DNA from: a virus
Taxonomy: Duplodnaviria > Caudoviricetes
Length of the DNA: 64,000 nucleotides
IMG/VR virus record: IMGVR_UViG_3300035390_000014
Location: 138,720-202,719 of that record
Direction: 5' to 3' (one strand)
Positions 3,702-64,000 of the stretch are shown here, piece by piece; position 1 is the stretch's first letter; each line of letters begins with the position of its first letter. The notes beneath the pieces are model-generated. The model was not told the origin of the DNA and did no database searches. It saw only the letters and a list, made by a program, of their open reading frames with translations. The position numbers and the translations under genes are program-made.

Positions 3702-3717
3702 AGAACATATTATAAAT
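3702..3717 (+). promoter_or_regulatory. phage promoter motif AGAACATATTATAAAT (T4-late-like TATAAAT core)
   Basis: Exact motif immediately before tRNA-Val; many further copies in the window. Confidence 0.7.
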
Positions 3718-18770: not shown

Positions 18771-19427
18771 ATGGAAACCGTTAAGCTAATCGAATGTATT
18801 AACACATGGCAGGGAGAAGGTGTAGATACCGGACAAAGAATGTTGTTGTGTAGATTTAAGTATTGTAATAGAAAATGTTCTTGGTGTGATACTCTTGTTA
18901 AAATGAGAGCAGTCCAGGAAGCTGAATTTAAATTGGCCAAACTTCAAGAAATTATAGATGAAGAACGCACTGGTTTAATGATAACAGGTGGTGAACCAAC
19001 ATTTTCAAGTCAGTTGCAACAAACAATTTCCATGTTAAATACTTTAGATTATCCTGTTGCTAATGTAGAAACAAATGGTTTAGGGTTGTTGGAATTGATT
19101 AAGGAAGTTAGTCATGATAAAAATGTTCATTATAGTTTTTCACCAAAATTATTCAATGATCAAGATATTGAAGATGCACTTGACTTAGCAGAAATACTTA
19201 GTTCTAACCCTAATGTATTTCTAAAAATTGTATTTGGATATGAAAAATTAACTATAGAATTTATTGAAGATGTTATTAAATTCTTTCCTGCAAATAGGAT
19301 TTATTTAATGCCTCTTGGTAAAGATAGAGATCAAATGTTTGGTAATGCTCCAGACGTATTTGATGCAGCAGAAAAGTATAAAACTAACATTAGTAGTCGT
19401 ATGCATCTTGTATATGATTTTGTGTAG
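18771..19427 (+). CDS. queE: 7-carboxy-7-deazaguanine synthase (radical SAM)
   Basis: TWQGEG, RFKYCNRKCSWCDT, ITGGEP, VETNG, SPKL, YLMP, RMHL; promoter at 18743-18758. Confidence 0.85.
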   Translation: METVKLIECINTWQGEGVDTGQRMLLCRFKYCNRKCSWCDTLVKMRAVQEAEFKLAKLQEIIDEERTGLMITGGEPTFSSQLQQTISMLNTLDYPVANVETNGLGLLELIKEVSHDKNVHYSFSPKLFNDQDIEDALDLAEILSSNPNVFLKIVFGYEKLTIEFIEDVIKFFPANRIYLMPLGKDRDQMFGNAPDVFDAAEKYKTNISSRMHLVYDFV

Positions 19428-30717: not shown

Positions 30718-31467
30718 ATGAAAAAATATGATATTAATAAAATGTTAGAAGAATGGGGTAGTACTGGTTTATCCGGTGTTGGTCCATTTCCAGGACAAGA
30801 TAATGACCCGGAGGATGTTGACAGTCTTTCCGCTGATTCTGGTTCGTCAAATTCTTCTGATTTAACCACTCATTTTCAAGGTCCATCCGACCCAGAAAAT
30901 AGACCAGGCCCTGACCAAAAGAAATTGCCTATTAAAGAAGCACCAGGTGATGTAATGTCTACATCAAGTCCAGCTCCACCAGTAAAAGAAAAACCACCTA
31001 CTCAACCAAAACCGCCGCCTATGAAAACACCAGATATGCAAGCTCCTCCAGGTGGTATGGGTGCTCCTCCAGGTGGTATGGGTGGAGAACCTGGTATGGA
31101 AGATCCTTCTATGATGGGTATGGGTATGGGAATGCCTGGTCCAGCAGATTCTGGGGAAGTTGGTAGAATATATGAACTTAAAAAAATATATTCTAGATTA
31201 GTATCAATGCAATCATATTTAGCTGGAACAACTGATGTTAATTTAATTAAACTTAGAAACTATGTTTCACAAACAATGGATTTATTCAGAACATTGATTT
31301 CTAATATTGCTTTATATAAAGATAGATTAGATGAAATAATTATTGTTTTTTATAAAGTTGTTGATAATGTGTATGTTATTTTATCTAAATATTATAAAGA
31401 TAAAGACAGTGGTAAAATGGTTCAGGCAGTTGAAGGTAAACTTATTAATAATCCATTTGAAATATAA
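30718..31467 (+). CDS. Pro/Gly/Met-rich head-associated protein
   Basis: Low-complexity N-terminal half (APPGGMG x2) and helical C-terminal domain; lies in the head cluster. Confidence 0.6.
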   Translation: MKKYDINKMLEEWGSTGLSGVGPFPGQDNDPEDVDSLSADSGSSNSSDLTTHFQGPSDPENRPGPDQKKLPIKEAPGDVMSTSSPAPPVKEKPPTQPKPPPMKTPDMQAPPGGMGAPPGGMGGEPGMEDPSMMGMGMGMPGPADSGEVGRIYELKKIYSRLVSMQSYLAGTTDVNLIKLRNYVSQTMDLFRTLISNIALYKDRLDEIIIVFYKVVDNVYVILSKYYKDKDSGKMVQAVEGKLINNPFEI

Positions 31468-31477
31468 AGGAAATTAT

Positions 31478-32980
31478 ATGAATACTGTCAAAATGATAAG
31501 TATTATAAATGAGAAATATAAACTAAATTCATTTTTAGGGGTAGATATTATAAAGCAGTATTTAAAAGATAAAGCAGATATTGATATGGTATGTGTAACA
31601 TATCAATTATATGTGCATAATAATATGTATCATGAATTAAGAAAAAATGAATTTGACAATGGTGAAGTAGTTTGTGAGATTGGTTACCTAGTTAATATTC
31701 TTCAAATAATAAAAAATTACGAAGATGGTGTAGAAGATTTATCTACTGGATTAATAATGTTAGATGATGACCAATGGAAAACTGTTCATAGTGTTATTGA
31801 AAATGCAAATTCTATTGATATAAATAATATTGAAATATTTGGATTTTCATCTCTTTATATTACATTTTTATATTTATTTTTATATGCAGCTATTATAAAA
31901 AGAAGAAATCCAAATATTAAAATTGTATTTGGTGGGTATCATGTGACCCTTAGTGAAAGAATAAGAAAGTTATTATTAAAAACTAATATAGTTGATATAA
32001 CAATATCTGGTGATGGTTGTAAACCAATGTTAGATATAGCTCAAGGAAAAATAACAGAAGGTGATTATTTTGGAAAGTTTGAACAAACTCCATCATTACC
32101 GCATTATACTAAAATACGAAGAAGAATAGGACCACCAAATTTTTCTACTTTATCATCTGTGGGTTGTAAATTTAATTGTTATTTTTGTGCTAGTTCTAGA
32201 GAATTTATAGAATGTGATTTAGATTATCTAAAAAAATATATAGAAAGAGAAAATAAAATATACCGCATTAATCATATTAGCTTTGCCGATGATTGCATCA
32301 ATCCCACAATCTCGAGAGCAATAGCACTTTGTAATGTTATGAAAAATTTCCCAAGTATAACTTGGAATGCACATTTTGTGTGTTCTCAATACAATGATAA
32401 ATTATTAGAAGCATTAGTAGATAGTGGTTGCACTGAATTATTTTTAGGAACTGAAGCATTTTCTGATGATATTTTAGATGTTATAAATAAAAATTGTAAT
32501 AAGAAAAAATATTTAGAAACTATTCATAAATTATGTGATGCCGGTATAAAAGTTGTTCTTGGAATTATATGTGGATTACCATCAGAAACAGATGAAAAAT
32601 TTCAAGAAACATTAGATGTTGTAATTAACTTAGTTAAAAACTATGAAGACTTAATTACAATAGCTCCAGTTTGTATTAAAATGTTTCCAGGTTCTGAAAT
32701 GTATAAAAAACCAGACAAGTTTGGTATATCATTTACCTATTGGAGTAAAGATATTATAAATAAATATTGGAAATATAAGATAGAAGAAGAATTTCCTGAA
32801 TTATTACCATTAATTGAAACTATACCTTTTTTGTTTTCTATAGAAGGAGTTTCTGGGAATGATCGTTTTGAAAGACAGGCAAGATTTTTGCCATTTAAAA
32901 AGAATTTATTAATTTATGGTAATGGTGAAAGTCTATCTCTATATAACAATGTAAATGAATTAAAACCAATAACATTGTAA
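31478..32980 (+). CDS. B12-binding radical SAM protein (class B methyltransferase-like)
   Basis: GFSS, IVFGGYHVT, GDG cobalamin-domain motifs; SVGCKFNCYFC, FADD, GTEAFS, IICGLPSET. Start moved to ATG 31478. Confidence 0.85.
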   Translation: MNTVKMISIINEKYKLNSFLGVDIIKQYLKDKADIDMVCVTYQLYVHNNMYHELRKNEFDNGEVVCEIGYLVNILQIIKNYEDGVEDLSTGLIMLDDDQWKTVHSVIENANSIDINNIEIFGFSSLYITFLYLFLYAAIIKRRNPNIKIVFGGYHVTLSERIRKLLLKTNIVDITISGDGCKPMLDIAQGKITEGDYFGKFEQTPSLPHYTKIRRRIGPPNFSTLSSVGCKFNCYFCASSREFIECDLDYLKKYIERENKIYRINHISFADDCINPTISRAIALCNVMKNFPSITWNAHFVCSQYNDKLLEALVDSGCTELFLGTEAFSDDILDVINKNCNKKKYLETIHKLCDAGIKVVLGIICGLPSETDEKFQETLDVVINLVKNYEDLITIAPVCIKMFPGSEMYKKPDKFGISFTYWSKDIINKYWKYKIEEEFPELLPLIETIPFLFSIEGVSGNDRFERQARFLPFKKNLLIYGNGESLSLYNNVNELKPITL

Positions 32981-56719: not shown

Positions 56720-57340
56720 ATGGAAATTGATCTAAAGTATCCTAAAGGTAAAAACGGTAAAGCCGTGTGTCAAGAGTGTGGTGGTGAATTTATGTTAATC
56801 AGTCCAGCTCATTTAAAGAAACATGGGATCACCATGGCCGAGTATAAGTTGAAATACCCTGGTTGTCCAGTCTCTGGAGCAGAATATAAAGCAACTAAAA
56901 ATGTATATCATGATAGTATTCTATTTAAAAATGATGAAGGACTTCCATCTGAACCATTAGATGATGATATAGCTTTGGCTGAATTATCAGAAGGTATATA
57001 TAAACATAGTATTTTAAATCTAGAAGGTGTTTCAAAAAACAAAGCTGATATATTAACTTTCCTTCATGATGCCTATCCATACTTAGAAGATAACTATAGT
57101 ATTGAAAAAAGACATTTCCATGATGAAAGTTTGTTATGGAAATATATAACAGATATGGCTGATCCAATTAAAAAAGTTATTTTTGATTTTCCAGATGCTT
57201 TTTGGCATAATGAAGATGCATATCCTGATCCTCAAAAGTATGATAAACTAAGGGAAGACGGTTGGATAGTTATTGTTGTTGATAAACATTATCCTACTGC
57301 ACAAGATGTATACCAAGACACTGATATTATAAGCGACTAA
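56720..57340 (+). CDS. Zn-finger (MucR-like) plus degenerate nuclease domain
   Basis: CQECG...AHLKKHGITMAEYKLKYP; FDFPDAFWH..LREDGW. Confidence 0.6.
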   Translation: MEIDLKYPKGKNGKAVCQECGGEFMLISPAHLKKHGITMAEYKLKYPGCPVSGAEYKATKNVYHDSILFKNDEGLPSEPLDDDIALAELSEGIYKHSILNLEGVSKNKADILTFLHDAYPYLEDNYSIEKRHFHDESLLWKYITDMADPIKKVIFDFPDAFWHNEDAYPDPQKYDKLREDGWIVIVVDKHYPTAQDVYQDTDIISD

Positions 57341-57546
57341 GATACTATTATGACTAGAACATATTATAAATTGCCAATCAATTATGATCTTCAATTATTA
57401 AATACCTATGATGTTACTTGGGGTGGCTTATTTCATACATAAGTCACCCCAAATTTTCCGTTGTAATAATCCATTATGTTATATTATGTATTAATATATA
57501 TAGAATAACTTTCTTAAAAATATGGTGCCAGCATGTATAATGTAAT

Positions 57547-57562
57547 AGAACATATTATAAAT
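57547..57562 (+). promoter_or_regulatory. phage promoter motif heading the tail/radical SAM operon
   Basis: Exact AGAACATATTATAAAT; no terminator-like hairpin seen from here to the window end. Confidence 0.65.
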
Positions 57563-57645
57563 AATTGTAGAATTTAGTGGTTTTTACCACTTTAAAAACT
57601 TAAAAGTTTAAAAATTCACTAGAAAGAATTTAATTGGAGGAAAAT

Positions 57646-58455
57646 ATGGGAAATCCAATTCCTATTCAGGAAAGAAGTGTTGATCCTTATTCTAGTTATA
57701 ACTCAGATGTGGTAAACAAACTCACTAGAATTGTATCAGATGGTAAGAATACTTTATTAATGCCATCTCCAATATATGTTGAAATTGTTGATAATACTCA
57801 TGTTATGGCTAAAGCAGGTAAGGCAATAATGGATGATGTATTAATTGAAATAGAAGATTTAAGTGTAGATATGACCGATGGTTCTTTCTATCTCAATGTT
57901 GGAACTGGAACATGGGACGAATCTGGATATTATTATGTAGTTTTAGATTATCAGTATAATAAAATTTCGCCACCACCAGAGGCAAGTATAAAACTTATTA
58001 AACCATCCCAAAGAGGATCTTTATATGATCCATTATTACATTTATTTATATCCGCTATTTATGTAACAAACCCAGGTGGTGGATATGAAGTAAATGCTAT
58101 ATTTGAATATGATCCTGATAATCCATCTATTGCAAGAGAAGCAGTGGGTGGTGGTAGTCCTGGTACAACAGTTGTATATACTGAACTTGCATCTGGCAAC
58201 CATGAAGCTACTACTAATGATGATACTATAGTTATTGATACGTCACTTGGAAATGCTACTATTATATTACCATTAGCATCTACTTCAGAGCGTATGATTA
58301 GAATAGTAAAATTAACACCTGATGCTAATACGATAACAATTGAAGCTTACCCGGGTGACAGCATTGAAGGAAACGCATATAAAGTGTTATCTAATCAATA
58401 TGATGCTATATCAATAATACCATACCCAACAAATAATGTTTGGATTGAGGTATAA
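57646..58455 (+). CDS. probable virion (tail/baseplate-associated) protein
   Basis: Beta-rich; C-terminal DTIVIDTSLGNATIILP..MIRIVKL..NTITI module as seen in tail-fibre proteins. Confidence 0.55.
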   Translation: MGNPIPIQERSVDPYSSYNSDVVNKLTRIVSDGKNTLLMPSPIYVEIVDNTHVMAKAGKAIMDDVLIEIEDLSVDMTDGSFYLNVGTGTWDESGYYYVVLDYQYNKISPPPEASIKLIKPSQRGSLYDPLLHLFISAIYVTNPGGGYEVNAIFEYDPDNPSIAREAVGGGSPGTTVVYTELASGNHEATTNDDTIVIDTSLGNATIILPLASTSERMIRIVKLTPDANTITIEAYPGDSIEGNAYKVLSNQYDAISIIPYPTNNVWIEV

Positions 58456-58466
58456 GGAGGGTAACG

Positions 58467-58991
58467 ATGGATTATAAACATAGAAATGCAGTTAGTAAAG
58501 TTGCACACACAACAAGTGTAGGAAATGCAACATTTGATATTGGTAGTGGATTAACTGATAGATTTAGAAAAATTTATTCTCAAAACTTTGAAGGTGATAC
58601 ATCTGGTGCCTATTACGCTGATCTTGCAGAAAAATATACAGTAGACCCAGAAATTGAATTATCTATTGGAACTTTAATTGAAGTTTCTGATAGTGATTTT
58701 GATGCTGAGTTATGTGACACACCATTATCTCAACATGTTATTGGAGTTATATCTGAGAGTCCTGGTTTTCTAATGAATAAAGGATTAGAAGATAGTGCAG
58801 TTGTTGGTTTAGTAGGAACACTTCCAATTAAAGTTATTGGACCTGTTATGAAAAAAGATATATTAGTTTCTGCAGGTAAAGGTTGTTTAAGAGTGGCAGA
58901 AACAGAAGACGAATATAAATATAAAGTAGCAATTTCATTTGAAACAAATGATAACTATAATGAAAAATTAGTTAAATGTTTTATTAAATAA
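58467..58991 (+). CDS. protein with a tail-fibre autoproteolytic chaperone (peptidase G2-like) domain
   Basis: YADLAEKY, GVISESPG, VGLVGTLPIKV and GDIL-like KDILVS motifs. Confidence 0.65.
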   Translation: MDYKHRNAVSKVAHTTSVGNATFDIGSGLTDRFRKIYSQNFEGDTSGAYYADLAEKYTVDPEIELSIGTLIEVSDSDFDAELCDTPLSQHVIGVISESPGFLMNKGLEDSAVVGLVGTLPIKVIGPVMKKDILVSAGKGCLRVAETEDEYKYKVAISFETNDNYNEKLVKCFIK

Positions 58992-58995
58992 AGGA

Positions 58996-60111
58996 ATGGC
59001 GATGAACTTTGAATTTCAGTTAGTTTTGACAGAGAAATGTAATTTAAGATGCACTTATTGTTATATGAAAAAAAATCCTAAAGATATGACCAGGGCTATA
59101 TTTCATAAACATTATGACATGCTTCCTCATATGATGAAGAAGTATAATAAAACAACATATACAGCAGCTCTATTTGGTGGGGAACCATTATTAAATTGGG
59201 ATCTTATAGAATATATAACCCCAATTTTAAACAATGATCCTAAATGTAAACATATAATTATTATGTCAAATTGTATTGAATTGCAAGATGCTCATAAAAG
59301 AAAATTTTTAGAAGATAATAGAATAGCAATTTCAATGTCGTTTGATGGTTTATGGAATGAAACAAACAGACCATTACCTGGAGGTAAATCAAGTTTACCT
59401 ATTTATATGACTGAACCATTAAAATCTTATTTTACTGGCAAAGGCAGTTGCAAAGTTATGGTAGCTCCATCAAGTGTTCCAACAATGGTAAAGAATTTTA
59501 TTTGGTTTGTTGAAGAATATGGGATGCCATCTCCTGATTTTACATTAGTTAGAGATGATGTATGGACCAAAGAAGATGTTCAATTATTTGCTATAGAAAC
59601 TGAAAAATTAGCTAATGTTATAATTGAATATTTTAATAAAGGTAAGAATGTTATGGCCGGTTTTTTCTTACTTTATATTCTTGATTTAATGTTTGGTGAA
59701 TCATATGGAAAAAGACCTCATGGGTGTTTCGCTGGTTGTCATGGAGCGGGATTTATGCCTGATGGAAAAATTTATCCATGCGCTAGATTTGGTAGCAATG
59801 AAAAATTCCCGATTGCTGATTCAATTGAGAAAACTATTTATAGTACTTGTGATAAAATGAAAATCTCACAATTCTATAATCCTGCAACTTTTACTAAATG
59901 TCAAGAATGTGTTCTAAATAAATATTGTAATGCTGGGTGTAGCTTTCAACAACTTAAACCCGGAGGAAAAGAATTTGAATCAGCCCCAGTAGATAGCATA
60001 TGTGAATTATTAAAAATATGCTATAGTCAGTCAATGAGAATTACTAGAGAATTAAAAGACAACAAATTGTTTGTTGAAATGATCAAAAACTCAATTAAAA
60101 ATGTAGGCTAA
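58996..60111 (+). CDS. radical SAM/SPASM peptide maturase 1
   Basis: LTEKCNLRCTYCY, LFGGEPLLN, SFDG; SPASM GCFAG..IYPCARF..CQECVLNKYCNAGC..C. Confidence 0.9.
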   Translation: MAMNFEFQLVLTEKCNLRCTYCYMKKNPKDMTRAIFHKHYDMLPHMMKKYNKTTYTAALFGGEPLLNWDLIEYITPILNNDPKCKHIIIMSNCIELQDAHKRKFLEDNRIAISMSFDGLWNETNRPLPGGKSSLPIYMTEPLKSYFTGKGSCKVMVAPSSVPTMVKNFIWFVEEYGMPSPDFTLVRDDVWTKEDVQLFAIETEKLANVIIEYFNKGKNVMAGFFLLYILDLMFGESYGKRPHGCFAGCHGAGFMPDGKIYPCARFGSNEKFPIADSIEKTIYSTCDKMKISQFYNPATFTKCQECVLNKYCNAGCSFQQLKPGGKEFESAPVDSICELLKICYSQSMRITRELKDNKLFVEMIKNSIKNVG

Positions 60112-60129
60112 CAAGGAGAGAGAGAAAAA

Positions 60130-60612
60130 ATGGAAATTTTAAACGAAAAAGAAACTGTTATTTTTAAATCTGCAGAAACACTTCTGAATGTATCAACTTC
60201 ACTTAGAGAAATCAATCCTGACGTTGCACAAGCGGTTTTATTTTTGAGTGATAGACTTTTAAAAGCAGTTGAATTAGAACCTGTTACAGTAGAATCTGCT
60301 GCAGTAGAACTTGTTAATGTATGTAATGATGAATTATGTCCTGATTGCGGTGGTATTAAACAAGTTCAACATATTGTATGTAATGATGAATTGTGCCCTG
60401 ACTGTGGTGGCATTAAACAAGATGATATTGTAATTCTTGATCAAAAAGAATCTGTCGATGAATCTACTAACTGTCATGGTCATCAAGCTGATGGAACAGG
60501 GACTGGGCAAACTCAATCTCAAATGAATAAACAAGGTCCTAATAATCATGTTAGTTCTAATATTAAAAATGAGATTCAAGAAATGATTAATGAAATTAGA
60601 GGTACACTTTAA
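60130..60612 (+). CDS. accessory protein with a duplicated CNDELCPDCGGIKQ motif
   Basis: AAGGAG RBS; internal 14-aa repeat; polar C-terminus. Confidence 0.7.
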   Translation: MEILNEKETVIFKSAETLLNVSTSLREINPDVAQAVLFLSDRLLKAVELEPVTVESAAVELVNVCNDELCPDCGGIKQVQHIVCNDELCPDCGGIKQDDIVILDQKESVDESTNCHGHQADGTGTGQTQSQMNKQGPNNHVSSNIKNEIQEMINEIRGTL

Positions 60613-60614
60613 TT

Positions 60615-61646
60615 ATGGAAATAACTCAAGAAGAGATTGATGGTTTTTTTGGAGATATTAAAGAAATGTTTACTAAAAAAGAAATTAAAAAAGAATGTGA
60701 TTTAAAATGCAATGGTTGTACTTTGAATGCATGTAAAACTAACTCTTCTGTTATTACCCCTATAGAACCTACCAACACATTAAATACTAAAGTCAAAGAT
60801 AAATCAGGAACTCAAAGAACAAATGTTATTTATCTAAACACAGATTGTAATTTAAGATGTGAGTATTGCTATGAAGGTAATAGTAGAAATGGTTTACCTG
60901 ACCAAGCAAACTGTAAACCTAAAGATGTAGATGCATTTTTAAATGAAATAGTAAGTAGAGAAAAAGGTTGCATTTCAACAATTGTTATAATGGGAGGAGA
61001 ACCATTTCTTGCATTTGATATGATATTATACACAATGTATAAAGCTGCATCACTTACTAAAATAAAAGGAAATGGGTGGGGAATTAGTGTTGTAAGCAAC
61101 GGAACTTTATTTACTAAAGAAAAATTAACTAGGTATAAAGAAGCCATTGATAAAGTTAGTAAATACCATGTTAATATTTCTCAAGAAGTTAGTTATGATG
61201 GTAGTGGTCATTGGAAAAGAAAATGGCCGGATGGTTCTAATTCAAGACCACAAGTAGAAAAAGGGATTCAAAAATTAATTGATTTTGAAATTCCTTTTAA
61301 AATTAGTTATGTTGCTCATTCAGGTAATTATGATAGTATTGTTAAAGATTGTATTTATATTCTTGAAAAGTGGCCCAGACCTTATCCATATCGTATTACT
61401 GTCGGGTGGGCATATGAGGAACTGGATAAAGAACTTGGCCCAAATATGGCATTTAAATTAAAAGATGAGTTTAGACCCTATGCCATAAGATTACTTGATT
61501 TGTATGGTACTCCTATTTGTGGAAATACATGCGGATATTGTACTAAATGTAACCAAGAGAATTTTGTAGGAAATTCATATTTATCACCAACTACTGGCAT
61601 TTCGTATGATAATAAAACAACAGAACATAGCTTTAGACAATTTTAG
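60615..61646 (+). CDS. radical SAM protein 2 with extra terminal Cys clusters
   Basis: YLNTDCNLRCEYCYE, MGGEPFL, SNGT, SYDG; N-terminal CDLKCNGC and C-terminal CGNTCGYCTKC. Confidence 0.88.
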   Translation: MEITQEEIDGFFGDIKEMFTKKEIKKECDLKCNGCTLNACKTNSSVITPIEPTNTLNTKVKDKSGTQRTNVIYLNTDCNLRCEYCYEGNSRNGLPDQANCKPKDVDAFLNEIVSREKGCISTIVIMGGEPFLAFDMILYTMYKAASLTKIKGNGWGISVVSNGTLFTKEKLTRYKEAIDKVSKYHVNISQEVSYDGSGHWKRKWPDGSNSRPQVEKGIQKLIDFEIPFKISYVAHSGNYDSIVKDCIYILEKWPRPYPYRITVGWAYEELDKELGPNMAFKLKDEFRPYAIRLLDLYGTPICGNTCGYCTKCNQENFVGNSYLSPTTGISYDNKTTEHSFRQF

Positions 61647-61657
61647 GAGAGACCCCG

Positions 61658-62818
61658 ATGGCAAGTCAAAATCAGCAAGGTTTTAATAACGTAAAGATTT
61701 ATAGTATAGATTTAACAACTACAGATGATTGTAATTTTAATTGTAGTTATTGTTTTGAACATGGATATTTTAATAAAAATTATTTTGATAAGGTTGATTT
61801 ATTTATTCAACGAATGAATGAATTAATGGATTCTTTCTTTTTTAAATCCAATTATCAACTTCTTGGTATAGGATTTTGGGGTGGGGAACCAACTCTAAAT
61901 GAATCAGCTATAAAAAGATTAATTAAATATTATGGAAATGATGATCGAGTTAAATTCTTTATATATAGTAATGGTTCTAATATTGATCCATATATGGAAG
62001 TGTTAGAAAAATATAAAACAAAAACTTTATTTGGACATCCAAAACTTTGCATTCAAATGTCATATGACGGAATGCCTGTCCAAGATATTTGTAGAAAAGA
62101 TAAAGCTGGAAAATTAACATCATCAATGGTTAGATCTAATATTGAAAGATTATATAAAAGTAGAATACCTACTGTTATTAAATCTACTATTACTCCTGAT
62201 GCTGTTAAATATCTTCCAGCAGCTAGAAGAGATATTTTAGATTTAGTTAATAGTGGTGAAAATAATTTTTTTAGAAGCACAAATTTTTTCCCAACTATTG
62301 ATTATTATCATGTTGAAGAAATCAGTGATGTTTTGATGGAACAATATTTAATTGAATTAAAGAAAAGTTTAATTGAAATAGCTAAAGAAGAAATTGATTA
62401 TGCTAAGAATAATAATGGTCGTTTCTTTTTTGCATGGTTTAACCCTGGTAGGGCATTATGTTGTGCTGGGCGTGATATGGTTTGTATTAATTGGGATGGA
62501 AATATATTTAAATGTCATGGTTCAGTATATGAAGATGGAAAAGGTGAACATTTTTTAACTAGTTTAGATGATGATAATTTCATTGAAGCATTAATTGAAT
62601 CAAATAAAACACATAATACTAATTTTGGCGTTGAACCAGAAGAATGTAGAAACTGTGAGGCAACTTATTGTTTAAGATGTAATTCAGTTAAATATAATTA
62701 TAGTAAAAAAGATACTTACATTGAAAAATGGAGAGATTATTCTGACCAACCAAATCTATGTAAGTTTTATAAATTAAATGGCAAAATAGTTCATGCTATT
62801 AATGAGCTATTGAAATAA
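61658..62818 (+). CDS. radical SAM/SPASM peptide maturase 3
   Basis: TTDDCNFNCSYCFE, FWGGEPTLN, SNGS, SYDG; SPASM CCAG..GNIFKCHG..CRNCEATYCLRC..C. Confidence 0.9.
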   Translation: MASQNQQGFNNVKIYSIDLTTTDDCNFNCSYCFEHGYFNKNYFDKVDLFIQRMNELMDSFFFKSNYQLLGIGFWGGEPTLNESAIKRLIKYYGNDDRVKFFIYSNGSNIDPYMEVLEKYKTKTLFGHPKLCIQMSYDGMPVQDICRKDKAGKLTSSMVRSNIERLYKSRIPTVIKSTITPDAVKYLPAARRDILDLVNSGENNFFRSTNFFPTIDYYHVEEISDVLMEQYLIELKKSLIEIAKEEIDYAKNNNGRFFFAWFNPGRALCCAGRDMVCINWDGNIFKCHGSVYEDGKGEHFLTSLDDDNFIEALIESNKTHNTNFGVEPEECRNCEATYCLRCNSVKYNYSKKDTYIEKWRDYSDQPNLCKFYKLNGKIVHAINELLK

Positions 62819-62832
62819 TTTGGGGGTTAAAT

Positions 62833-63570
62833 ATGGGATGTACTGCACATACTAATACCACAGCTTGTACTGCACATACAGCGACTACAACTTGTGCCAC
62901 TCATGTAACAGGTCCTTGTGTACATGCAGAAACAACTACATGTGTAGCTCATGTAGAACTTGGATCTTCAGCTCCGCCTGGCACAGCTACTGTATGGACT
63001 GATGATCCTCTGACAACTTCTATTAAAATAAAACAAGAGCATCATAATGAATTAAGAGCTGCTATTAATACTGAATTACTTAGTCAAGGAAAAACCTGGC
63101 CAATTGATCCTGGTTATGTTTCACGTGGTATTAACAAAGTATTATATACCCATGTAAGACAATTAAGAGATGGGATCGATGAAGCTCAGGCATGGAGTTA
63201 TCCTTCTTACTTATCTGATTCATATACTGAAGTTGGAGATAAGGTTCTTAAGGATCAATATACTGCATTAAGAAGTCAAGTTAATTCAATAGAAACTGGT
63301 TGTCCTTGTGATTGTAATTATGGTTGTACTTGTCAATGTAATTATGCTTGCACATGTCAATGTAATTATGCTTGCACATGTCAATGTAATTATGCTTGCA
63401 CTTGTGATTGTAACTTCACAGTTTGTAGTTGTGATTGTAATTATTGCACTTGTAATTGTAACTATTGTACATGTGATTGCAACTATTGTACATGTGATTG
63501 CAACTATATTTGCACATGTAATTGTGCCTACTCTGATAAAAGACTAAAAACTGAAATAATTTATATGTAA
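62833..63570 (+). CDS. Cys-rich repeat protein A (putative radical SAM substrate, 35 Cys)
   Basis: N-terminal Cxx(x)H repeats, a central WTDDPL..HHNELRAAI duplicated helical module, ten CxCxC units and an SDKRLK tail. Confidence 0.85.
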   Translation: MGCTAHTNTTACTAHTATTTCATHVTGPCVHAETTTCVAHVELGSSAPPGTATVWTDDPLTTSIKIKQEHHNELRAAINTELLSQGKTWPIDPGYVSRGINKVLYTHVRQLRDGIDEAQAWSYPSYLSDSYTEVGDKVLKDQYTALRSQVNSIETGCPCDCNYGCTCQCNYACTCQCNYACTCQCNYACTCDCNFTVCSCDCNYCTCNCNYCTCDCNYCTCDCNYICTCNCAYSDKRLKTEIIYM

Positions 63571-64000
63571 ATTATTTAAAAATATACGGAGGACTATTTA
63601 TGGCATGCACTGATCATACAAATACTACAACATGTGGTGCTCATGCTGCAACTGTAGCCTGTACAACTCATTCTAATACTGTCACATGTACTAGTCATAC
63701 TAACGCAACTTGCACATGTAATTGTAATTATGCTTGCACTTGCCAATGTAATTATTCTTGCACTTGTGATTGTAATTATGCCTGTACTTGTCAATGCAAT
63801 TATGCTTGTACTTGTCAGTGTAACTATTCTTGTACTTGTGATTGTAATTATTGCACTTGTGATTGTAACTATTGTACTTGTGATTGTAACTATTGTACTT
63901 GTAATTGTAACTATATTTGTACATGCAATTGCGCATATTCAGATAAAAGACTAAAAACTGAAATAATTTATATGTAAATTATTTAAAAAATATACGGAGG
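63535..64000 (+). repeat. near-perfect direct repeat (63535-63592 and 63942-64000) covering the gene tail, spacer and next RBS
   Basis: GATAAAAGACTAAAAACTGAAATAATTTATATGTAAATTATTTAAAAA(A)TATACGGAGG occurs twice, differing by one A. Confidence 0.9.
63600..63977 (+). CDS. Cys-rich repeat protein B (putative radical SAM substrate, 34 of 125 aa Cys)
   Basis: GGAGG RBS; four CxxH repeats, ten CTCxC(N/A)Y units, tail identical to protein A. Confidence 0.88.
   Translation: MACTDHTNTTTCGAHAATVACTTHSNTVTCTSHTNATCTCNCNYACTCQCNYSCTCDCNYACTCQCNYACTCQCNYSCTCDCNYCTCDCNYCTCDCNYCTCNCNYICTCNCAYSDKRLKTEIIYM

Follow-up and report, generated by a model that had tools for sequence, protein, structure and literature searches.

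A phage operon of radical SAM enzymes and Cys-repeat fibre-type proteins suggests peptide-maturase chemistry on virion components

Small secreted peptides are the known products of radical S-adenosylmethionine (SAM) enzymes with a SPASM domain. We analysed an operon in which three radical SAM genes stand next to genes for extremely Cys-rich repeat proteins, at the end of the IMG/VR virus record IMGVR_UViG_3300035390_000014 (Duplodnaviria; Caudoviricetes). The window, to which all plain positions below refer, is the final 64 kb of this 202,719-bp viral contig (64,000 nucleotides; completeness of the record estimated at 65%), and a first-pass annotation of it had been made from the letters and their open reading frames (ORFs) alone. 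The operon consists of eight plus-strand ORFs between 57634 and 63977, separated by gaps of 2-29 nt, which we call o1, o2, r1, acc, r2, r3, c1 and c2 (Table 1). Sequence comparisons suggest that this phage and its relatives probably modify a part of their particle with enzymes of the type that make peptide antibiotics.

Maturation of a whole protein by a SPASM enzyme was shown recently in one archaeal case, in which the radical SAM enzyme CrpC of Methanococcus voltae forms ranthionine bridges on the 28.8-kDa protein CrpA at CxxQ/D motifs (PMC13692751). The phage cassette resembles CrpC/CrpA in its SPASM enzymes with seven auxiliary Cys, its full-size Cys-rich repeat protein and the second, paralogous protein in the cluster; it differs in that CrpC/CrpA is archaeal and cellular, with a 17-residue repeat and one enzyme carrying an RRE (recognition element of RiPPs, peptides that are made on ribosomes and modified after translation), whereas the phage cassette is viral and has two to three enzymes without RRE, a three-Cys unit of 7-8 residues, a fibre-chaperone motif and a tail-fibre context. 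With the PapB/freyrasin and CteB/SCIFF systems, whose known substrates carry repeated Cys-acceptor motifs, it shares a radical SAM core plus SPASM with aligned cluster Cys; unlike in these systems, the candidate substrates are fibre-like proteins of 125-245 amino acids (aa), and leader/RRE logic, protease and export are all missing. The CXXX-repeat system (TIGR04115) likewise pairs a radical SAM/SPASM maturase with a short-period Cys-repeat target, with another period and motif and in cells. Among phages, the Campylobacter group II phages CP220, CPt10, CP21 and IBB_35 encode a repeat-unit protein plus orthologues of r1 and r3, but their protein has 534 aa, unrelated flanks and no S74 tail, and the genes do not form one operon. 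Our literature search found no description of radical SAM enzymes linked to phage fibre proteins, which agrees with the statement of the first-pass annotation that no phage system of this architecture was known to it. One cyanophage paper calls a phage radical SAM maturase an "antibiotic synthesis gene", without evidence.

All three enzymes score above the cut-off of the Pfam Radical_SAM family (PF04055; 39.9, 50.9 and 39.4 bits for r1, r2 and r3 against 29.5). Conservation of the cluster Cys was counted over seven orthologues per enzyme. The CX3CX2C triad (C15/19/22 in r1, C78/82/85 in r2, C25/29/32 in r3) is conserved in 7/7 in each case, and so is a full SPASM set of seven auxiliary Cys in both r1 (C244, 262, 302, 305, 311, 315, 336) and r3 (C268, 286, 330, 333, 338, 341, 368), even though the Pfam SPASM score of r1 stays below its cut-off (16.3 against 21.5). 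For r2, there is no SPASM match and at most a single auxiliary-cluster motif, made of four C-terminal Cys (C302/306/309/312, 7/7); its N-terminal Cys motif is not conserved among orthologues. These Cys sets bear out the order read at first pass, with SPASM enzymes in first and third place and "rSAM 2" between them, and database matches place the enzymes nearest to thioether-forming SPASM peptide maturases. PapB is the best NCBIfam match of both r1 (NF047865; 9.6e-36, 123.6 bits) and r3 (6.1e-23, 81.6 bits), each against a curated cut-off of 340 bits, and r1 also matches the SCIFF maturase (TIGR03974; 88.3 bits, cut-off 425) and the CXXX-repeat maturase family (3.8e-23, 82.6 bits, cut-off 350), so that r1 and r3 are related to the PapB/SCIFF families but by curated cut-off are not members of them. 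Over the three enzymes the best matches are all peptide maturases (PapB, SCIFF, nif11-type and the CXXX-repeat family), and weaker ones include cyclophane-forming maturases (YhhB, AmcB) and sulfatase maturases. By solved structures, r1 comes nearest to the thioether synthase CteB (5WGG, 5e-16), the alignment taking in the SPASM region, and r3 to 8VPO (1.3e-9), deposited with a study of radical SAM cyclopropyl synthases (PMC10878394). In r1 the radical SAM motif begins at residue 15 and in r3 at residue 25, and none of the three enzymes has an N-terminal peptide-recognition domain. Seven radical SAM genes are present in the whole contig; two further ones in the window lie at 31343-32980 (545 aa) and 18771-19427 (218 aa).

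The Cys-repeat proteins c1 (35 Cys in 245 aa) and c2 (34 Cys in 125 aa) each contain exactly ten CxCxC(N/A)(Y/F) units. From its N terminus, c1 is built of CxxH repeats, a helical domain, the ten units and a 12-residue stub of an S74 domain (SDKRLKTEIIYM); c2 has the same 12-residue tail, and its DNA is 88% identical to the 3' part of c1. We compared the DNA of the 34 pairs of units with identical peptides, which differ on average at 2.35 of 21 nt and are identical in DNA in 2/34 cases. Because units with the same peptide differ in this way, the array is neither a chance product nor fresh slippage, and by this measure selection acts on the repeat peptide, not on the DNA. Neither protein has a Pfam match, and c1 matches PHROG 26958 at 7.6e-16. 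A homologue search of 5.8 billion proteins with c1 yielded at least 400 homologues, none of the 400 annotated, and 119 of the best 120 carry at least three CxCxC-type units. Residue frequencies taken over 886 repeat units gave Thr at position 2 in 80%, Asn/Asp/Gln at position 4 in 94%, Asn at position 6 in 89% and Tyr at position 7 in 96%; with N/D/Q-type residues at positions 4 and 6, each unit holds two overlapping Cxx(N/D/Q) motifs. The N-terminal repeats are Thr-rich, about nine residues long (CTAHTNTTA type; encoded at 62833-62960 and 63600-63710) and contain one Cys and one His each. At least two CxxH motifs occur in 77 of the best 120 homologues, and these repeats may bind metal in a trimer or be additional targets of the enzymes. 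In an AlphaFold 2 (AF2) model of c1 the central helical domain reaches a pLDDT (predicted local distance difference test) above 90, and a fold search with this model returned nothing significant in the PDB or BFVD.

The enzymes and the repeat genes occur together well beyond this contig. Megablast of the region against deposited phages gave no match, and tblastn of c1 against them also gave none, probably through low-complexity filtering; relatives were found through a pattern-based locus search. We defined lineages as clusters at 80% identity and counted as a repeat gene any ORF on the same strand that has four or more CxC within 40 aa, a pattern that one non-family ORF shows in the six frames of the 202-kb genome. 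Starting from c1, orthologues of r1, r2 or r3 lie within 10 kb in 12/14 distinct Cys-repeat loci, mostly directly upstream and in the same order. Starting instead from a profile of r3 orthologues, which yielded at least 131 viral loci, we analysed the best 80 of 131 (L024-L105) and found a Cys-repeat ORF on the same strand in 65/80, corresponding to 35/47 lineages and beginning immediately behind r3 in most cases; among the "negative" loci, two carry yet more divergent Cys-rich tails. The first-pass annotation had named a lack of co-occurrence in other genomes as the outcome that would speak against it, and in both directions the opposite was found. Searched against one genome each from 185,579 prokaryote species, the family matched two short contigs of metagenome-assembled genomes only; on this ground a cellular origin was rejected, and on the genomes searched the family is virus-borne.

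The number of enzymes varies with the type of unit. Loci with three-Cys units (CxCxCNY, 7-8 residues) carry all three enzymes in 31/39 cases, and loci with two-Cys units (CxCNxx, 6 residues, usually with a full S74 domain) carry r1 and r3 or r3 alone, with r2 in 0/20. At the level of lineages, r2 is present in 11/16 with three-Cys against 0/15 with two-Cys units (Fisher p 7e-5 with clustering at 80%, 0.007 at 45%). Since each of the two unit types may represent a clade, this no more than suggests a link between r2 and three-Cys units. Relatives have additional radical SAM genes downstream of the cassette, interspersed with genes of sugar pathways (KdsA-like, CMP-sugar synthetase-like, transaldolase-like, DegT aminotransferase, carbamoyltransferase and methyltransferase; Table 1); the matching region of the phage studied here falls beyond the contig end.

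The C termini of the repeat proteins point to the phage particle. S74 domains (Pfam PF13884) are self-cleaving C-terminal chaperones of trimeric tailspikes and fibres. As in endosialidase tailspikes and T5-type fibres, where the SDxRLK start follows right after the fibre part, the repeat block stops precisely where the S74 motif begins with its Ser. The exact 12-residue tail SDxRLKxxIxY(L/I/M/F) terminates 85 of the best 120 homologues, and Ser1, Asp2 and Lys6 are invariant in 85/85, which retains the S74 feature of a Ser with a Lys five residues later. Unlike those tailspikes and fibres, c1 and c2 keep the first 12 residues only of a domain that spans about 58 profile positions. In the homologues P0116 and P0096 the same junction runs on into a complete S74 domain, as it does in 22 ORFs of r3-linked loci. 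In four related loci (L006, L007, L021, L023) the remainder is encoded directly downstream by a separate gene of 91-102 aa in another frame, which matches the Pfam profile above cut-off but only from position 16-20 on. By these profile matches, the S74 chaperone is split over two genes in the four loci, an arrangement that we did not find described in the literature and that would be a separate addition to what is known of fibre assembly.

A second chaperone-like protein is encoded at the head of the operon. The tail-chaperone domain seen in o2 at first pass is supported by profile and fold: o2 scores 17.1 against Pfam Peptidase_G2 (PF11962), which is sub-threshold (cut-off 25), and matches a PHROG tail-fibre C-terminus at 5e-7, and the o2 family profile matches the phi29 preneck appendage protein (6QZ9, 3GQH; E 3e-4), with the invariant YADLAEKY of the family aligned to the WSDFAEYF autocleavage site (DLAE to DFAE). 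Foldseek with the AF2 model of o2 found 3SUC (5.9e-4) and also 3GQH, with beta-tulip capsid decoration proteins scoring as well. The family may resemble phi29 gp12 (3SUC, 3GQH) in its D-x-A-E motif and a putative beta-tulip fold, normally the C terminus of a fibre or spike, and differs from it in that o2 is a stand-alone protein of 174 aa, separated from the fibre part o1. In other loci, the gene directly upstream of r1 encodes a fibre or spike protein of 361-2007 aa that has the o2-type domain as its C terminus. For o1, described as virion-like at first pass, residues 11-122 match the N terminus of a 537-aa L012 protein whose C terminus is o2-like, and otherwise there are weak Atlas leads to tail-fibre families and no Pfam or PHROG family. 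That o1 and o2 are one gene joined by stop read-through was considered and rejected, as they lie in different frames and the split is kept in L020, the closest relative, and in L022.

One member of the family has been found in virions. The 534-aa protein gp140 of CP220, found in Campylobacter group II phages, contains seven CTCDCNY-type units, and CP220-type phages also encode an orthologue of r3, with 34% identity, some 2.2 kb downstream and one of r1, with 38%, elsewhere in the genome. In IBB_35, the product of gene 3-9 was identified by mass spectrometry (MS) in purified virions at 2.6% coverage (PMC3322345, Table S2); we calculated its mass as 60,317 Da, against 60,318 in that paper. The CP220 paper had noted a 21-bp repeat and 11-12 radical SAM genes without linking them, and proposed a role in host metabolism (PMC2853527). 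In two records the Campylobacter Cys-repeat protein is named "putative N-acetylneuraminate pyruvate lyase" (HE815464.1, 74991-76592, CP21_105; OP654737.1, 20183-21742), a name that nothing in our analysis supports. Protease, transporter and immunity genes, which the first-pass annotation had not seen, are indeed absent from the operon and from its syntenic relatives, L020 included, and the features of a canonical RiPP pathway (RRE, leader protease, export or immunity genes) were not found. The S74 junction, the o2-type fibre context, the late-type promoter described below, the lack of protease and exporter and the IBB_35 homologue together support the earlier proposal that the Cys-repeat proteins are a structural part of the virion and not a secreted peptide.

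Behind r1, a small ORF is conserved in position in 10 loci. Its product in this phage, acc, was first described as repeat-bearing; the two CPDCGG knuckles behind this description are present, and their duplication is limited to this phage and L020, so that the feature is specific to this lineage. Homologues of acc conserve the N- and C-terminal helices and have 0-7 Cys. On account of this range among positional homologues we rejected acc as a second Cys substrate, and we likewise rejected it as an RRE, since it gives no RRE-type match. It is more likely, from its conservation pattern, an adaptor than a substrate.

We propose that the operon is a module, expressed late, through which small proteins of the tail-fibre type are built and undergo chemical maturation. 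The proteins c1, c2 and a probable third copy would be fibre subunits with a C-terminal stack of CxCxCNY units, on which the upstream-encoded r1, r2 and r3 would act before or during assembly; we consider it likely that these enzymes do modify the repeats. The most probable reaction joins the Cys sulfur to side-chain carbons of Asn/Asp/Gln, giving thioethers of the ranthionine type, which we favour because each unit has two overlapping Cxx(N/D/Q) motifs, although for thioethers as such we see an even chance. In this scheme r1 and r3 would form the core SPASM pair and r2 an add-on tied to the third Cys and the Tyr of the 7-8-residue unit, and acc may present the substrate, as the three enzymes have no peptide-recognition domain of their own. 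The 12-residue tail would dock an S74 chaperone supplied in trans, an idea drawn from the fused or separately encoded remainder in related phages; trimers would then form, and the chaperone may afterwards cut the tail off. The virion would thereby gain a fibre tip or shaft whose units are stapled covalently. Taken as a whole, we regard this as the best explanation with somewhat better than even confidence. A sharper version is tentative, and we would sooner bet against it: the SPASM pair staples the two Cxx(N/D/Q) motifs in every unit, the third enzyme handles the extra Cys/Tyr, and the split S74 domain trimerises the fibre and then cuts off its own handle, giving a cross-linked receptor-binding organelle that can be made in low-oxygen hosts only. 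The assignment of two SPASM enzymes to two motifs and of r2 to the extra Cys/Tyr fits the association of r2 with three-Cys units.

Several results weigh against this proposal. Since all three enzymes score far under the cut-offs curated for each named maturase family, homology does not reveal their reaction, and r3 has its closest solved relative in a cyclopropylglycine synthase rather than in a thioether enzyme. Pfam and NCBIfam scans found no RRE or PqqD-type domain in r1, r2, r3 or acc. The AF2 model gives the repeat region a pLDDT of about 55, from which no geometry can be read, and a complex prediction of r3 with c2, three 4Fe-4S clusters and SAM scored 0.00, which, as controls were not run, is evidence neither way. 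The IBB_35 homologue shares with c1 only the repeat block and the preceding helix, and its MS coverage is the 2.6% given above. No radical SAM gene is seen within the available flank of the Cys-repeat loci L005 and L010/11, and the association of r2 may reflect a single evolutionary event. Finally, neither the Pfam S74 profile nor a custom hidden Markov model found an S74 remainder in the 202 kb of this genome (an estimated 65% of the whole), and none stands beside the three paralogues of L020.

Among other explanations, the one that survives best, which we nonetheless consider unlikely, is that in a trimeric fibre the Cys and CxxH repeats serve as structural elements which bind metal or are rich in disulfides, and that the radical SAM enzymes act elsewhere, on sugars, a cofactor or another substrate. 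Cys and His ligands abound in the repeats, the metal sites of other phage fibres offer an analogy, and the genome has seven radical SAM genes, while relatives combine radical SAM genes with KdsA-like, CMP-sugar synthetase-like, DegT and carbamoyltransferase genes just downstream. For CrpA, too, metal binding has been raised by the authors of that study (PMC13692751). The link between r3 and the repeats is however adjacent, same-strand and bidirectional in 35/47 lineages, and the sugar genes vary; r1 and r3 resemble peptide maturases and not sugar or cofactor enzymes, and the enzyme count of a locus follows the Cys count of its unit. The repeats could moreover both bind metal and be modified by enzymes.

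Less probable still, in our judgement, is that the repeats are modified by a chemistry other than thioether formation, such as carbon-carbon bonds at Tyr (cyclophane-type), Cys oxidation as in anaerobic sulfatase maturases, epimerisation or N-terminal Cys-His links. The Tyr at position 7 is conserved in 96% of units, the solved structure nearest to r3 is of an enzyme that forms carbon-carbon bonds, and the weaker NCBIfam matches include the cyclophane formers YhhB and AmcB as well as sulfatase maturases, with scores far below cut-offs. The thioether reading is favoured over these by the best-scoring families of r1 and r3, which are the thioether formers PapB and SCIFF, by the two Cxx(N/D/Q) motifs per unit, as in proven thioether substrates, and by the three invariant Cys per unit, hard to explain unless Cys reacts. 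Finally, tandem precursor-like paralogues after maturases and a conserved C-terminal tail that could serve as a recognition tag would suit a released RiPP-type product (bacteriocin-like or signalling, encoded near tail genes by chance, with the 12-residue tail as follower peptide), but we hold this to be very improbable given the lack of protease, transporter and immunity genes here and in syntenic relatives, the lack of a signal peptide-like N terminus, the identity of the tail with the opening strand of an S74 chaperone which other members carry in full, the homologue among IBB_35 virion proteins and the near absence of the family from cellular genomes.

The proposal of a late-expressed module of fibre maturation is consistent with the transcription signals. 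A 16-mer, AGAACATATTATAAAT, heads the operon, preceded by a terminator hairpin, and contains TATAAATA, the T4 late-promoter consensus. The window holds 9 exact plus-strand copies of the 16-mer, each ahead of genes; when up to 3 mismatches are allowed, the matches rise to 28, where 6.9 are expected and 0/100 shuffles reach this number. AGAACATATTATAAAT is probably the late promoter of this phage. Sites ahead of plus-strand genes are at 3702, 6709, 7396, 18743, 37621, 56666, 57356 and 57547, in addition to near-exact copies. Within the eight-ORF run we found neither a copy of AGAACATATTATAAAT nor a plus-strand terminator, which makes a single late transcript plausible. The compact same-strand run behind one promoter motif, as described at first pass, is thereby confirmed as the architecture of the operon. 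That description had also counted "two or more" Cys-rich paralogues. The contig ends at position 64000, 23 bases past the stop codon of c2, and since these bases repeat the intergenic sequence between c1 and c2, a third paralogue has likely been cut off by the contig end; L020, which is syntenic, has three Cys-repeat paralogues in tandem. The phage belongs among large T4-like phages, with a DNA polymerase of T4 type that is only 28% identical to polymerases of T4-like cyanophages (cyanomyoviruses), and it has no close cultured relative.

Table 1. Features of the operon and of related loci. Positions without a locus prefix are window positions; the related loci (L) have their own numbering.
Feature	Position	Strand	Description
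Terminator hairpin, 14 bp	57418-57452		precedes the promoter motif at 57547
Promoter motif AGAACATATTATAAAT (16-mer)	57547..57562	+	heads the operon; contains T4-late-like TATAAATA
o1, 273 aa, no Cys	57634-58455	+	putative N-terminal part of a fibre-like protein, split from chaperone domain
o2, 174 aa	58467-58991	+	candidate stand-alone intramolecular-chaperone domain of phi29 gp12 type (Peptidase_G2)
r1, 371 aa	58996-60111	+	radical SAM/SPASM enzyme
acc, 160 aa	60130-60612	+	small helical protein after r1
r2, 343 aa	60615-61646	+	radical SAM enzyme, no SPASM domain
r3, 386 aa	61658-62818	+	radical SAM/SPASM enzyme immediately upstream of Cys-repeat gene
c1, 245 aa	62833-63570	+	fibre-like Cys-repeat protein
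c2, 125 aa	63600-63977	+	c1 paralogue without helical domain
Start of further intergenic region	63978..64000	+	matches the c1-c2 intergenic sequence except for one extra A in an A-run
S74 remainder genes	L006:10615-10896, L007:10584-10859, L021:9704-9994, L023:7484-7792
Genes of ~190-210 aa	L004:10628-11251, L006:10893-11492, L007:11198-11764, L008:10451-11056, L012:11224-11862, L021:9987-10571, L023:7776-8402
Regions of radical SAM and sugar genes	L020:12191-15970, L021:13482-18696, L022:11187-18576, L023:9276-15703

Two kinds of neighbouring genes recur around the cassette. A 206-aa gene upstream of the operon (56720-57340) has a weak ROS/MucR-type zinc-finger match, is flanked by a promoter motif copy of its own and by a strong terminator, and keeps the same position in L020 and L022. 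In relatives, the gene next after the Cys-repeat gene or S74 remainder is regularly one of about 190-210 aa that matches no family, and it may be a further part of the module.

What would be new here, and is supported by the comparisons above, is the application of RiPP-type radical SAM/SPASM maturation to phage fibre-type proteins, coupled to fibre chaperones. Culturable carriers exist in CP220, CP21 and IBB_35. If the proposal is true, it would establish a new class of virion maturation, would explain the long-standing puzzle of the many radical SAM genes in Campylobacter group II phages, and would define a large, previously unannotated family (at least 400 members, at least 131 viral loci) and with it a new repeat substrate for enzymology. 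Stapled fibre tips could then matter for host recognition and for the stability of particles in the gut and other anoxic habitats.

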